The notes below the pieces were generated by a model. The model searched no databases. It was given only the letters and a program-made list of their open reading frames with translations, and was not told the DNA's origin. Position numbers and translations under genes: made by a program. Source: Campylobacterota bacterium (GTDB lineage: Bacteria; Bdellovibrionota; Bacteriovoracia; Bacteriovoracales; Bacteriovoracaceae). Taken from it: 64,000 bases of DNA. Location of the stretch: positions 19,738 through 83,737 of the forward strand of contig QNFX01000004.1 of NCBI GenBank assembly GCA_003650125.1, written 5' to 3'. Below are positions 1,009-4,848 of this stretch, one piece after another (the stretch's first letter is position 1; the number at the start of each line of letters is the position of its first letter).

Positions 1009-2115
1009 ATGAAGATAGGAATCCCTAAGGAAATTAAAGTATCTGAAAATCGTGTCGGCATGGTCCCTAGTGGAGTACAGCAATTAGTTCATGATGGAAA
1101 TGAAGTATATGTACAAAGCTCTGCCGGAATGGGGGTCGGACTTTCTGATGAGATGTATATCAATGCCGGTGCCAAGATTCTGCCTACGATAGAAGATATT
1201 TTTGCAACTGCTGAAATGATTATTAAAGTAAAAGAGCCACAGCCAGTAGAGATTGCTCTTTTAAGGCCTCATCATATTCTTTATACCTATCTTCACCTCG
1301 CTGCCGATATTAACCTCACTAAAGGATTATTAGAATCAGGGGCCACATGTGTTGCCTATGAAACCATCCAAGTTGCCGATGGATCTCTTCCGCTTTTAAT
1401 TCCCATGTCTGAAGTTGCCGGAAGAATGGGGACGCAAGTAGGGGCCACTTATTTGCAAAATGAAAAAGGTGGTAAAGGGATCTTACTTGGTGGTGTTCCC
1501 GGTGTTCCCCGGGGAAAAGTGACCGTAATTGGTTGTGGAATAGCCGGAACTAATGCCATCAAAATGGCCATGGGACTAGGTGCTTCCGTTACCGCCATTG
1601 ATATATCAGGAAAAAGGCTGGCCCAATTAGACGACTTATTTGAATGTCGAATAACTACTTTGTTTTCCAATATGGGAAATATAGAAAAATCAGTAATTGA
1701 AGCAGACTTGGTAATTGGCGCGGTCTTAATTCCTGGAGCTAAGGCACCAAAACTAGTTACCAAAGAGATGATTGCTAAAATGCAGCCTGGCTCTGTAGTT
1801 GTAGATATTGCTATTGACCAAGGCGGAAGTATTGAAACTTGTAGACCTACTACTCATGAAGATCCCACTTATGTGATAGATGGAGTAATTCACTACTCTG
1901 TTGCCAATATTCCAGGAGCGGTTGCCAGAACTTCAACCTATGCCTTAACTAATGCCACTTTAAAGTATGCCCGCTTAATCGCTAATAAGGGTATTGATGA
2001 AGCTGCGAGAGGTAGTCTTCCGCTACAAAAAGGTATCAATATTTATAAAGGGGATTTGGTTTATGAGGCGGTGGCAAAAGACCACAACCTACCCTACAGC
2101 GAATTAAAATTATAA
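1009..2115 (+). CDS. ald: alanine dehydrogenase
   Basis: MKIGIPKEIKVSENRVGMVPSG N-terminus, VIGCGIAGTNA Rossmann loop, and full-length similarity to Ald as I recall it. Start set to the ATG at 1009 behind AAGGTGA. Confidence 0.9.
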   Translation: MKIGIPKEIKVSENRVGMVPSGVQQLVHDGNEVYVQSSAGMGVGLSDEMYINAGAKILPTIEDIFATAEMIIKVKEPQPVEIALLRPHHILYTYLHLAADINLTKGLLESGATCVAYETIQVADGSLPLLIPMSEVAGRMGTQVGATYLQNEKGGKGILLGGVPGVPRGKVTVIGCGIAGTNAIKMAMGLGASVTAIDISGKRLAQLDDLFECRITTLFSNMGNIEKSVIEADLVIGAVLIPGAKAPKLVTKEMIAKMQPGSVVVDIAIDQGGSIETCRPTTHEDPTYVIDGVIHYSVANIPGAVARTSTYALTNATLKYARLIANKGIDEAARGSLPLQKGINIYKGDLVYEAVAKDHNLPYSELKL

Positions 2116-3027
2116 TTTTCTCAGGACTTTATCTAGCTCATCCTTAAAGGAATTAACCGCTAGAACCTCTTCTCCAGAAGGGCGAGAGTCCTGATCACAA
2201 TTGTTGCCATTTTCATCACAGTAATTGATTTTATAGCAGCTATTTTTTTGTAGAAGATCGGACTTGCCTCTAACTAGAATCCCCTCTACTTCACCTGATT
2301 TTAGATTAAAAACTGGAGATCCTGAATTCCCTTGGAAGCTATCTAAGTTGGTAGCAAAAAAGATTTCTCCATTGTTAATAACTCTAGCATTGCTGGCCAC
2401 TTTCAAAGGAAGTCCCATCGGGTGTCCCATAATTAAAAGTCGATCACCTTCTCTAGCAATTGAATCACGGTTTAATATAACGGGATCACGACCCAAGACC
2501 TCTCTATCTAGCTCAACAATGGCGTAGTCAACACCAGTTCTCATATTCATAATTTCTTTGTGGACTTTTTTACAGCGATAGACATTTTCCGGCCAAATTG
2601 CCATCTTCATGGAATTTCTATTTCTTGGTACTTTATAGTCAAATACCCAGTTGGCATGCTTACACATATCTCTTCTAAATGTGGCATAGCAATGTCCGGC
2701 AGTTACAATAATTTTTGGATGAACTAAAAAGCCGGTACACATCCCAGCAGTTGGTTGCTCGTCAAAGTTTTCTTTACCACAAAATCCATAGGCATCTTTT
2801 AACTTCTTAACCCTCCGGGAAAATTCCATATAATCTCCTATCAGAGATTTTTTAAGATTTCTCTTTTCAATCATTGCGGCCACAGAATCACCTAGATAGG
2901 CCAGGGGAGAAGCTACAAACTGATACATTTCTAAGCGATCATCTTTACCGTAGATAACCTTATCAATTCCATATGAATTAAAAGAAATAGACAGAACCCC
3001 TATAAGTGCTAGGCAAATTTTCTTCAA
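2110..3027 (-). CDS. secreted trypsin-like (S1) serine protease
   Basis: Signal peptide, then a catalytic triad context: TAGHC (His), DYAIVELD (Asp), GNSGSPV (Ser). Confidence 0.8.
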   Translation of the reverse strand: MKKICLALIGVLSISFNSYGIDKVIYGKDDRLEMYQFVASPLAYLGDSVAAMIEKRNLKKSLIGDYMEFSRRVKKLKDAYGFCGKENFDEQPTAGMCTGFLVHPKIIVTAGHCYATFRRDMCKHANWVFDYKVPRNRNSMKMAIWPENVYRCKKVHKEIMNMRTGVDYAIVELDREVLGRDPVILNRDSIAREGDRLLIMGHPMGLPLKVASNARVINNGEIFFATNLDSFQGNSGSPVFNLKSGEVEGILVRGKSDLLQKNSCYKINYCDENGNNCDQDSRPSGEEVLAVNSFKDELDKVLRKL

Positions 3028-3151
3028 TTATGAGCTCCATGACAGTTGATTAGATTAGAATGGTATACCAGGCCCTTAAGCTATAAAAAAGAAAAAATTA
3101 CTTACAACTGCATGGATTGATGCGCGTTGGTCGGCATGTTAAAATGAACTG

Positions 3152-4264
3152 TCAACCACCCCTCCCTAAAGGAAGGGGCTTGTAATTAGGAGATTGCTCC
3201 CCCACTACGTTCGGCCGATTGACTGCGGCCCTACTTGAGATTACACAAGCAGCGTTGATGTCGGCGTGGACGGTATAACCACACGACTGACAGGAGAAAA
3301 GAGATTGGGATTTTCGATTGGATTTTTTAGTATGTCCGCAACTAGAACATTCCTGGGAAGTGTATCTTGGGTCGACCAAAATCACTTCAATTCCCTCTTT
3401 TCTCGCTTTATACCAGATCTTCCCGGCAAGATCGTTAAATGCCCAAGAATGGAGTTGATACCGCAGGCCCTTCCTAACCGTTACTCTAGATCTTATTCCC
3501 TTGAGGTTTTCAAGGGCAATTCCCACAGAGTGCCTTTGGGCCGTTTCAACAATTTTTTTGGATATTTGATGGTTGATATCTTTGGCAAATCTTCTTTCTT
3601 TTTTGCTTCTTTTTTTCAAAAGGTTTTTGGCAGACTTGGTTCCCTTGGATTGAAGCTTTGCTCTAAGTTTAAGATTTCTAATCCTAACAGAGCTGATGTG
3701 AGAACCACTGTAAATTTTTTCCAAGCTGTCAGTGGCGATGTTGGTGATGCCAAGATCTACCCCAAGATATTGCTCAACAGGAACAGGTTCCTTTTCCGGA
3801 ACCTCACAAGTGGTGTAGAGGAAAAAATCTCCATTTTTATAGATCAGATCAGATTCACCTTTTTGAAATTTGAGTTGTTCTTTTTGTCTTTCTCCACAAA
3901 GATAAGAAAACTTTTTACGACCACCAATCGCCCAGATAGAGACCTCTTCATCTTTCCAAGTCAAAATTCTAGAGTCGTAGGTGATGGCACCATGTTCTCT
4001 AAATTTTCTGATTTTTTTAATATCAAGTTTGTAGCTGTCAGCGACCTTGGATATCGCTCTTACAACGAGTTGAGCGGAGAGATCAAAGCAATCTCGAATA
4101 GGGTGGTAGAGCATTTGGTGGATATCGTATTGGCGAAAAACCTTGTATTCAAAAGCAGATTTACTAATACCATTGCAAACTTCGTTAAACTGCTCCATAG
4201 TTTCAAGCAAAGATTGTTTGTCTTCCCTAGAAATTATAAGTTTAACTTGCGTAGTCAGTTTCAC
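3152..4264 (-). CDS. tnpB: TnpB (IS605 OrfB / IS1341-type) RNA-guided endonuclease
   Basis: 370 aa with a RuvC-like triad context: GVDLGITNIAT (D), GIALENL (E), HADINAA (D). Zinc ribbon CSSCGH...CQSCG. N-terminal KLTTQVKL..EDKQSLLETMEQFNEVCN is typical of OrfB. GTG start. Confidence 0.9.
   Translation of the reverse strand: MKLTTQVKLIISREDKQSLLETMEQFNEVCNGISKSAFEYKVFRQYDIHQMLYHPIRDCFDLSAQLVVRAISKVADSYKLDIKKIRKFREHGAITYDSRILTWKDEEVSIWAIGGRKKFSYLCGERQKEQLKFQKGESDLIYKNGDFFLYTTCEVPEKEPVPVEQYLGVDLGITNIATDSLEKIYSGSHISSVRIRNLKLRAKLQSKGTKSAKNLLKKRSKKERRFAKDINHQISKKIVETAQRHSVGIALENLKGIRSRVTVRKGLRYQLHSWAFNDLAGKIWYKARKEGIEVILVDPRYTSQECSSCGHTKKSNRKSQSLFSCQSCGYTVHADINAACVISSRAAVNRPNVVGEQSPNYKPLPLGRGG
3159..3178 (-). 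repeat. right-end subterminal hairpin of the tnpB element (inside the tnpB 3' codons)
   Basis: Minus strand reads CCCCT-TCC-TTTA-GGG-AGGGG: an 8-bp stem containing one T.G pair and a 4-nt loop. Same architecture as the hairpin at 4349-4368. Confidence 0.6.
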
Positions 4265-4348
4265 GATAAAAATAATAACACAAGGAGATCAAATGGCCAA
4301 ATTCAACAGCAATGGTTTTGGTTCTCGCCGAATGGCATCTCCATTTCT

Positions 4349-4368
4349 CTCCGCCCTGAAGGACGGAG
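4349..4368 (-). repeat. left-end subterminal hairpin of the tnpB element
   Basis: Minus strand reads CTCCG-TCC-TTCA-GGG-CGGAG. The inner TCC/GGG and the loop class match the right-end hairpin. Two outer stem positions differ and both changes are compensated. Confidence 0.6.
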
Positions 4369-4386
4369 TTTCCAGGAGATAATTTG

Positions 4387-4848
4387 ATGAATAAATGGAT
4401 AAACAAAATTTTAATCTTTCTATATTTAGCAGCTTCCTGCGCAACACTATACCTTTTTATATCTTGGTATCACTATGAAAGGCCGCAGATTGATGAATCT
4501 CAGGCGCGAAGAAAATTTTTAGAAGATAGTAGGAAACTTAAAGTTTCGGATACACTTAAAATAGAAAATTTAATTATTAATCTTCCCTCCCGTACGAGGA
4601 AGTTAAGATTTTTAGACCTTAGTGCTCACATCGTACCATTTAATGAAAATGATCTGAAAATTTTAGAAGAACAGGAATATATTATTAGAGATTCAATCAT
4701 TGAGATCGCCGGAAAAATGCGGCCAAAAAAACTTAATTCCATATCTGGAAAGCTCATATTAGAGGATAGAATAGTTAGAAGGATAAATGATATCTACAAA
4801 CAAGATATGATAAAAGAACTCTATTTTTCTAAATTTTTAGTTCAGTAG
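4387..4848 (+). CDS. fliL: flagellar basal-body-associated protein FliL
   Basis: N-terminal TM helix followed by the FliL-type domain (LIINLPS..LRFLDLSAHIV......IIRDSIIEIAGKM....L.SISGKLILEDRIVRRIN......IKELYFSKFLVQ). ATG at 4387 behind AGGAG at 4374-4378. Confidence 0.65.
   Translation: MNKWINKILIFLYLAASCATLYLFISWYHYERPQIDESQARRKFLEDSRKLKVSDTLKIENLIINLPSRTRKLRFLDLSAHIVPFNENDLKILEEQEYIIRDSIIEIAGKMRPKKLNSISGKLILEDRIVRRINDIYKQDMIKELYFSKFLVQ

Follow-up and report, generated by a model that had tools for sequence, protein, structure and literature searches.

The window analyzed here, a 64,000-nucleotide stretch of an assembly from a bacterium of the family Bacteriovoracaceae (GCA_003650125.1, hereafter G000, ~93% complete and fragmented), contains a tnpB gene as the sole gene between a trypsin-like peptidase gene (2110–3027, minus strand) and fliL (4387–4848, plus strand). 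The gene (3152–4264, GTG start, 370 amino acids) is the single open reading frame (ORF) of a 1,236-bp element, 3151–4386, which is very probably a non-autonomous IS200/IS605 transposon of the IS1341 group (tnpB only) with TnpB and an RNA scaffold. The element, its hairpins, and its RNA are described on the minus strand, which is the tnpB-sense strand and the top strand of the element, unless the plus strand is indicated.

The left end of the element is preceded in the flank by the target motif (TAM) TTCAT (4387–4391), whose CAT is the fliL ATG on the plus strand. The 18-nt left spacer (4369–4386) begins with CAAATT and includes the 5′ arm of an outer stem, ATCTCC (4380–4375), and the DNA guide GGAAA (4373–4369). 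It is followed by the left subterminal hairpin CTCCGTCC-TTCA-GGGCGGAG (4349–4368, read from 4368 to 4349), and by the outer-stem 3′ arm GGAGAT (4342–4337) with a small hairpin GCCATTCGGC (4336–4327), which together span 4327–4342. A promoter-like site of tnpB (TTGGCC, 17 nt, TG-TATTAT; 4272–4300), identified by a consensus scan and conserved among close copies, precedes the gene. The putative omega (right-end) RNA scaffold (3151–3258) contains the right DNA guide ACAAG (3179–3183), which adjoins the 5′ side of the foot of the right subterminal hairpin CCCCTTCC-TTTA-GGGAGGGG (3159–3178, read from 3178 to 3159). The right tail TGGTTGAC (3151–3158) ends in the transposon-encoded end motif (TEM) TTGAC (3155–3151). 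The adjoining flank AGTTCATTTTAACATGCCGA (3131–3150) would provide the guide of the omega RNA according to the TnpB model; it holds a second TTCAT (3148–3144).

Element boundaries and empty site

The ends of the element were determined from relatives inserted elsewhere and from an empty site. Loci with L numbers are relatives of the element from metagenomes and genomes, G001 is a genome of the same genus, and G012 belongs to another genus of the same family. In ten related copies at unrelated sites, the homology starts after TTCAT and stops after TTGAC, ATGAC, or TTTAC. The relatives used to define the boundaries have TnpBs 49–94% identical to that of the window, and their right ends, (T)TGAC or TTTAC, are followed by immediate divergence. 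The TnpB of G001 is 90–92% identical and encoded at an unrelated site; the homology between the two elements starts on the left at TTCAT|CAAATT and stops on the right at ...GGTnGTTGAC|. The left ends of the relatives are all preceded by TTCAT, TTCAC, or CTCAT. In all close copies TTCAT adjoins the left end, and the sequence 5′ of it differs. The identical copies L016 and L018 have different flanks. Orthology of the L011 and G001 loci was considered and rejected: their neighbouring ORFs differ, and they are therefore counted as independent insertions. The evidence of mobility comprises at least 11 distinct insertion sites in metagenomes together with the G001 copy at its unrelated site.

The site next to fliL is empty in G001, where contig C117 carries the flanks with the peptidase gene and fliL side by side. 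After removal of 3151–4386, the window aligns to C117 without gaps (GAACT|ATGAATAAATGG in the window, TACCT ATGGGTAAATGG in G001). The copies at unrelated sites and the empty site therefore define the element as 3151–4386, positioned 3′ of TTCAT without target-site duplication. Because G001 is empty at fliL and carries the element elsewhere, the movement was recent.

A first-pass annotation of the window had delimited the unit as 3144–4391 and had named other copies and empty sites as the evidence that might move its ends. They do so, giving 3151–4386 plus the flanking TAM. The right end is thus 8 nt past the hairpin foot (7–9 nt in relatives) and 7 bases inside the one first proposed, and the left end is 18 nt from the foot of its hairpin (17–20 nt in relatives). 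The left TTCAT, which had been placed at this same distance of 18 nt before the foot, is upheld as the target by the copies, the empty site, and the guide pairing described below.

Cleavage motifs and DNA guides

In IS608, the left cleavage motif TTAC (CL) is combined with the guide AAAG (GL) and the right motif TCAA (CR) with GAAT (GR), with the additional pairs A+16:T−3 and A+17:T−4 (PMC5934647). The positions of the five-base motifs are numbered here from 1 to 5, and the four bases before a hairpin foot from −4 to −1. According to the IS608 rule, the left site TTCAT pairs with GGAAA through C3–G, T2–A, and T5–A, in addition to A4·A; for TTGAC, the right site, and ACAAG the pairs are G3–C, T2–A, and C5–G. 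The rule is obeyed by every tabulated end, from 11 elements and one right-end-only copy, and also by the IS605 element of G012, a gene-less repeat of G000 described below, and IS608 itself (PMC5934647). Motif and guide covary in six combinations, with the variants TTCAC/GGAAG, TTTAC/AAAAG, TTTAT/TAAAA, TTCAA/AGAAT, and GTCAA/GGGAT. Right guides change together with the end motif in L074 (AAAAG with TTTAC), G012 (AGAAT with TTCAA), and the gene-less repeat (GGGAT with GTCAA). The window element's TAM and TEM disagree at two positions, 3 and 5, a pattern also reported for Geobacillus elements, among which TTCAT is a known TAM (ISGst5; PMC10055086).

Terminal hairpins and RNA scaffold

Both hairpins have an 8-bp stem with a T·G pair at stem position 6 and a 4-nt loop. 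They differ at two positions, both of which are compensated: position 2 is T–A in the left hairpin and C–G in the right, and position 5 is G–C in the left and T–A in the right. These properties are as read in the first-pass annotation, and its proposal that selection acts on the hairpin structure of the tnpB-sense strand is borne out by an alignment of independent copies, in which compensatory changes occur at both ends more often than in shuffles. In the eight-sequence alignment of the left end, 96% of cells are paired and 7 of the 14 pairs have changed on both sides, compared with 2.4 ± 1.0 double changes in shuffled and 0–3 in slid controls. The left hairpin contains compensatory changes in L020, L071, L073, and the G012 IS605 element, and the outer stem covaries in four of its six pairs. 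Six divergent left ends share the same fold: an 11-nt single strand, an outer stem of 6–7 bp, a symmetric internal loop, the 8-bp hairpin, and a small GCC/GGC hairpin. The left ends of the window element and of G012 IS605 have the motif GCCnTTCGGCGAGAA in common; the G001 version of it is GCCCTTTGGCGAGAA.

The last ~110 nt of the element fold into a closing helix (TCAAC/GTTGA) around four stem regions (five helices counted), of which the right hairpin is the last stem. This fold is the RNAalifold consensus. The segment from the window, folded as a single sequence, has a z-score of −3.4; the folding z-scores of the single ends are modest (−2.3 and −2.0). In the right end and scaffold, 94% of cells are paired and 18 of 35 pairs are doubly changed, in comparison with 6.8 ± 1.9 in shuffles and 2–7 in slid controls. 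With this support from covariation, the segment corresponds to the scaffold expected of an omega RNA. No Rfam family reached its threshold for the scaffold, and the gene-less repeat gave no Rfam match. A weak match to HgcC (3136–3284, minus strand; 16.6 bits against a threshold of 50, E = 0.6) is at noise level, and a HEARO match was discarded because it is on the wrong strand and also at noise level (E = 0.018).

The T·G pair had been taken as a sign of function as top-strand DNA or RNA. In its general form this argument holds, because G·U pairs are common throughout the sense-strand structure, but the pair at position 6 is not itself conserved: the right hairpin has U·G in four cases, C–G in three, and A–U and G–C in one each, and the T·G of the left hairpin is replaced by T–A in one copy.

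TnpB protein

The protein matches the Pfam families OrfB_IS605 and Cas12f1-like_TNB, and its score of 202 bits for the NCBIfam model NF040570 (guided_TnpB) is above the cut-off of 100. It belongs to a large family (4,728 proteins at E ≤ 1e-30). The nearest relatives with solved structures are Cas12f/TnpB-like chains (E = 8e-31), and the RuvC and cysteine motifs line up with their counterparts in a solved Cas12f structure. The score for NF049972 (Cas12f2), 156 bits, is below the family cut-off of 450, and neither a CRISPR array nor repeats were found within 12 kb of tnpB, which places the protein outside type V-F. The RuvC residues D170 (3757–3755), E252 (3511–3509), and D335 (3262–3260) and the zinc-ribbon cysteines C306, C309, C325, and C328 are present and are invariant in 119–120 of 120 homologues, which corroborates the earlier assignment of complete RuvC motifs and zinc ribbon. 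The ratio of non-synonymous to synonymous substitution rates (dN/dS) is 0.06 relative to L011 (first 226 codons) and 0.12 relative to L020, indicating that TnpB is under strong purifying selection.

The last ~25 residues of TnpB (…NYKPLPLGRGG; 3152–3230) are encoded by the RNA/DNA structure and are not conserved as protein; the right hairpin codes for the tail PLPLGRGG, and the stop codon TGA lies within the terminal TTGAC. The tnpB gene of L020 stops earlier, before its hairpin. In L011 (Ga0070722_10045538; 88% identity), the frame is broken after 227 codons, whereas the tblastn similarity continues to residue 369, which suggests either a frameshifted copy or a sequencing error.

Classification, mechanism, and alternative explanations

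The assignment to the IS1341 group is based on the presence of TnpB without a transposase, subterminal hairpins on the same strand, the lack of a target duplication, the complementarity of motifs and guides, and the evidence of mobility. The first-pass annotation had already recognized an IS200/IS605-type element that lacks tnpA and has a seemingly intact TnpB. [quoted passage not shown]

By this assignment, a Y1 (HUH) TnpA supplied in trans would bind both top-strand hairpins on single-stranded DNA and cut after TTCAT and after TTGAC, releasing a single-stranded circle and resealing the donor. The circle would be pasted 3′ of another TTCAT. Excision of 3151–4386 would join TTCAT to AGTTCATTTT; with the first-proposed right end it would be joined to TTTAACATG. 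The omega RNA would be transcribed through the right end into ~16–20 nt of the flank and loaded on TnpB. The complex may then cut the resealed donor joint (TTCAT + AGTTCATTTTAAC...), after which recombination would restore the element.

Several points weigh against this interpretation. The activities of TnpB and the omega RNA, and that of any TnpA, are attributed by homology with published systems, and both the 5′ terminus and the guide length of the omega RNA are assumed by analogy. The search for further copies proposed in the first-pass annotation yielded the relatives and the empty site, but in G000 a DNA search returned a single copy. A cognate tnpA was not found in G000; this absence is unproven because the assembly is incomplete and fragmented. 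Finally, the recurrence of a second TTCAT just past the right end, described below, is not accounted for.

It is conceivable that the copy has been stranded or domesticated, so that its ends are relics and TnpB and the omega RNA serve the host, for example as a TldR-like regulator of fliL. The missing cognate tnpA, the single copy, and the position directly on the fliL start, where the element supplies the Shine–Dalgarno sequence, would suit such a role. TldR-type regulators have lost their catalytic residues. In contrast, the window TnpB retains all three, both ends are intact, as are both DNA guides, and the relatives adjoin unrelated genes. Together with the recent movement indicated by the empty fliL site of G001, this makes domestication quite unlikely.

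It is very unlikely that the element instead runs to the second TTCAT, with the same pentamer cut at both ends and a unit of 3144–4386. The first-pass annotation was correct that a TTCAT is present at 3148–3144, and such a motif occurs 2–6 nt past the right end in four of nine close insertions: the window, G001, L011, and L073 (it is recorded just after positions 843 of L006, 1364 of L011, and 1432 of L073). Only 1.7% of the ATGAA sites of the genome have such a TTCAT neighbour, so that P(≥4 of 9) is ~1e-5, or ~3e-4 if the window is omitted. A Geobacillus TnpA can also choose another boundary, located downstream of the right end; however, this choice required a match to the TEM, and exchanging the TAM for the TEM at the left end was not tolerated (PMC10055086). 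As a cleavage site, the right TTCAT of the window is contradicted by the copies, the empty site, and the guide. What follows TTGAC is different in each copy, and five of the nine close copies lack TTCAT there. The 7 nt past the right end, AGTTCAT, align ungapped with the G001 empty site (5 of 7 identical) and thus belong to the flank. The right guide ACAAG pairs with TTGAC and has no pairing with TTCAT.

That the hairpins function only as RNA (omega scaffold, terminator, or 5′ untranslated region), with movement by, for example, an IS607-type serine recombinase, is extremely improbable: the right hairpin does belong to a covarying RNA scaffold and G·U pairs suit RNA as well as top-strand DNA, but the left hairpin is upstream of the promoter-like site of tnpB and outside the omega RNA, the complementarity and covariation of TAM and TEM with their guides are meaningful for Y1-type cleavage alone, a gene-less repeat and an element with tnpA are flanked by the same hairpins, and the IS607_TnpB score is 51 bits against a cut-off of 350.

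Transposase supply and gene-less repeat

No Y1 transposase is encoded in the window, as had been stated before, and contig C4 has no Y1_Tnp match, which separates the element from the IS605 group. The earlier conclusion that an element without a transposase gene needs tnpA in trans for its mobility holds. The search of the genome for an IS200-type tnpA, suggested at the same time, detected only two Y1_Tnp genes in G000, on contigs C76 (in a tnpA+tnpB element) and C63, neither of them regarded as cognate. These contigs have the third and fourth most deviant tetranucleotide profiles of 103 and a GC content of 0.43–0.44, compared with 0.37 for the genome. The tnpA of C76 was rejected as a helper because its contig is deviant and the hairpin of its element, the one of the two with readable ends, differs (CCCACGA-ACTTTAG-TCGTGGG), and the Y1 gene of C63 because its contig is likewise deviant and its HUH motif is seemingly degenerate (H-I-R, read by eye). 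The tnpA+tnpB element of G001 (C138) has a long-looped left-end hairpin, unlike that of the window. No tnpA was found beside the TnpB genes of the relatives examined. This is the usual situation: a tnpA is found close to about 25% of tnpB genes, and most are without an adjacent one (PMC10055086).

The short contigs C63, C76, C95, C101, C96, C91, and C99 (GC 0.43–0.47, genome 0.37) have deviant tetranucleotide profiles and are probably mis-binned DNA of another organism. The only Y1 transposases of G000 are in this group, together with another TnpB (39% identity), which is unrelated.

A search of G000 with the hairpin did not yield further copies of the element but a different repeat. All 20 nt of the right hairpin are found again, unchanged, at the ends of contigs C24, C35, C81, and C88, and a near-identical left version is present at contigs C5, C21, and C42. 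By their overlaps, these pieces make up a gene-less repeat of ~355 nt between TTTAT| and GTCAA|, and the assembly is interrupted at it. The left end of the repeat reads TTTAT|CCACAATGTCCTTCAAAA-hairpin, and the right end hairpin-AGGACGTCAA|. The repeat is multi-copy in G000, and in its right part it is similar to the omega-RNA region at the right end of the tnpA+tnpB element of G012; it is therefore probably a palindrome-associated transposable element (PATE) carrying an orphan omega RNA. An apparent one-hairpin mini version of the repeat is located directly after a 5S rRNA gene (C88:142–200).

In G012, the same hairpins end a divergently arranged tnpA+tnpB element of the IS605 type (contigs C12 and C16). 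The load is unusually heavy, with ~20 tnpA/element copies and 26 copies of the right-end hairpin in a 2.7-Mb genome. A TnpA of the G012 kind is a plausible helper of the window element. Since a cognate TnpA was not found in the assembly, the window copy is probably immobile, or stranded, at present.

Possible docking on start codons

In 11 of 13 insertions, the CAT of the target provides the start codon for an ORF in the opposite orientation. This was noted at 4375–4389 (plus strand) of the window and in the left flanks of L007, L011, L012, L019, L020, L071, L073, L074, L013, and L022. The docked genes include fliL in the window, genes for an epimerase-like N-terminus and an acetyltransferase, and genes for lipoprotein or signal peptides. 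On the plus strand of the window, GGAG (4375–4378) is separated by 8 nt from the fliL ATG (4387), and the outward arrangement GGAG-N8-ATG is found in the close clade. Several right flanks carry a Shine–Dalgarno complement, as if the native site were now on the far side of the right end. As TTCAT is complementary to ATGAA (Met-Lys/Asn), the element would land exactly between the native Shine–Dalgarno sequence and the ATG; together with the outward GGAG, this suggests that it separates the native ribosome-binding site from the start codon and supplies a new one.

We tentatively propose, as a possibility that is somewhat less probable than its opposite, that the clade docks on start codons, that GGAG replaces the displaced ribosome-binding site so that insertions are tolerated or selected, and that the second TTCAT hints at tandem targets or alternative right-end cleavage. 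In two cases the second TTCAT overlaps the Shine–Dalgarno complement, CCTT(T)CAT, and on the left side of L022 the sequence is TTCAT-TATT-TTCAC. A promoter-like site on the plus strand (3117–3145; TTGATG, 17 nt, TG-TAAAAT) lies shortly beyond the right end and is directed towards the interior of the element. Should it be the native fliL promoter, the fliL mRNA would now start with 1.2 kb antisense to tnpB. Start-codon docking with a replacement ribosome-binding site and a recurrent second TTCAT would, if true, add to transposon biology.

Comparison with known systems

Copies of tnpB-only IS200/IS605 elements are among the commonest prokaryotic genes, and their mechanism is textbook knowledge. 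The window element is routine in this respect, and its worth is in the clean delimitation: exact ends, an empty site, and TAM and TEM with matching DNA guides. The compact TnpB of 370 residues, with its covariation-supported scaffold and predicted TTCAT TAM, could be put to the test as a small nuclease for genome editing.

ISDra2 of Deinococcus radiodurans resembles the window element in the RuvC D-E-D residues and zinc ribbon, in an omega RNA that overlaps both the tnpB 3′ end and the right end, and in the identity of TAM and target. The TnpB of ISDra2 has 408 residues. It is too distant for detection at the sequence level and was not identifiable among the PDB matches. IS1341-type tnpB genes with sense-overlapping 3′ non-coding RNAs (PMC4615843; Rfam HgcC) likewise combine a tnpB-only element with a 3′ non-coding RNA; the likeness to HgcC is far below threshold, and no Rfam family covers the window scaffold.

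IS608 of Helicobacter pylori, which serves as the mechanistic model of IS200/IS605, and the window element both have top-strand subterminal hairpins, a left cleavage site in the flank, a right site inside the element, and no target duplication. In both, a guide lies 5′ of each hairpin foot and pairs in the same manner (position 3 with −4, 2 with −3, and 5 with −1, and A·A between 4 and −2). Cleavage of IS608 occurs on the 5′ side of the left hairpin at a distance of 19 nt and on the 3′ side of the right hairpin at 10 nt (PMC3201880), as the first-pass annotation had stated, compared with 18 and 8 nt in the window. Unlike IS608, the window element has no tnpA, its motifs are TTCAT and TTGAC instead of TTAC and TCAA, and its left end has an additional outer stem. 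The extrahelical T of IS608 corresponds to a T·G wobble in the window, and the distant relatives L022 and L013 have a bulged T.

The elements ISGst2–5 of Geobacillus stearothermophilus (Meers et al., PMC10055086) carry only tnpB, and a single TnpA mobilizes them in trans. The window TnpB is of another clade and host, its cognate TnpA was not found in the assembly, and the evidence for its element comes from sequence. The TAM and TEM of ISGst2–5 differ at the same two positions as those of the window, and gene-less PATE derivatives share their ends (PMC10055086). In the model for ISGst, TnpB and omega RNA guard the donor joint (PMC10055086).

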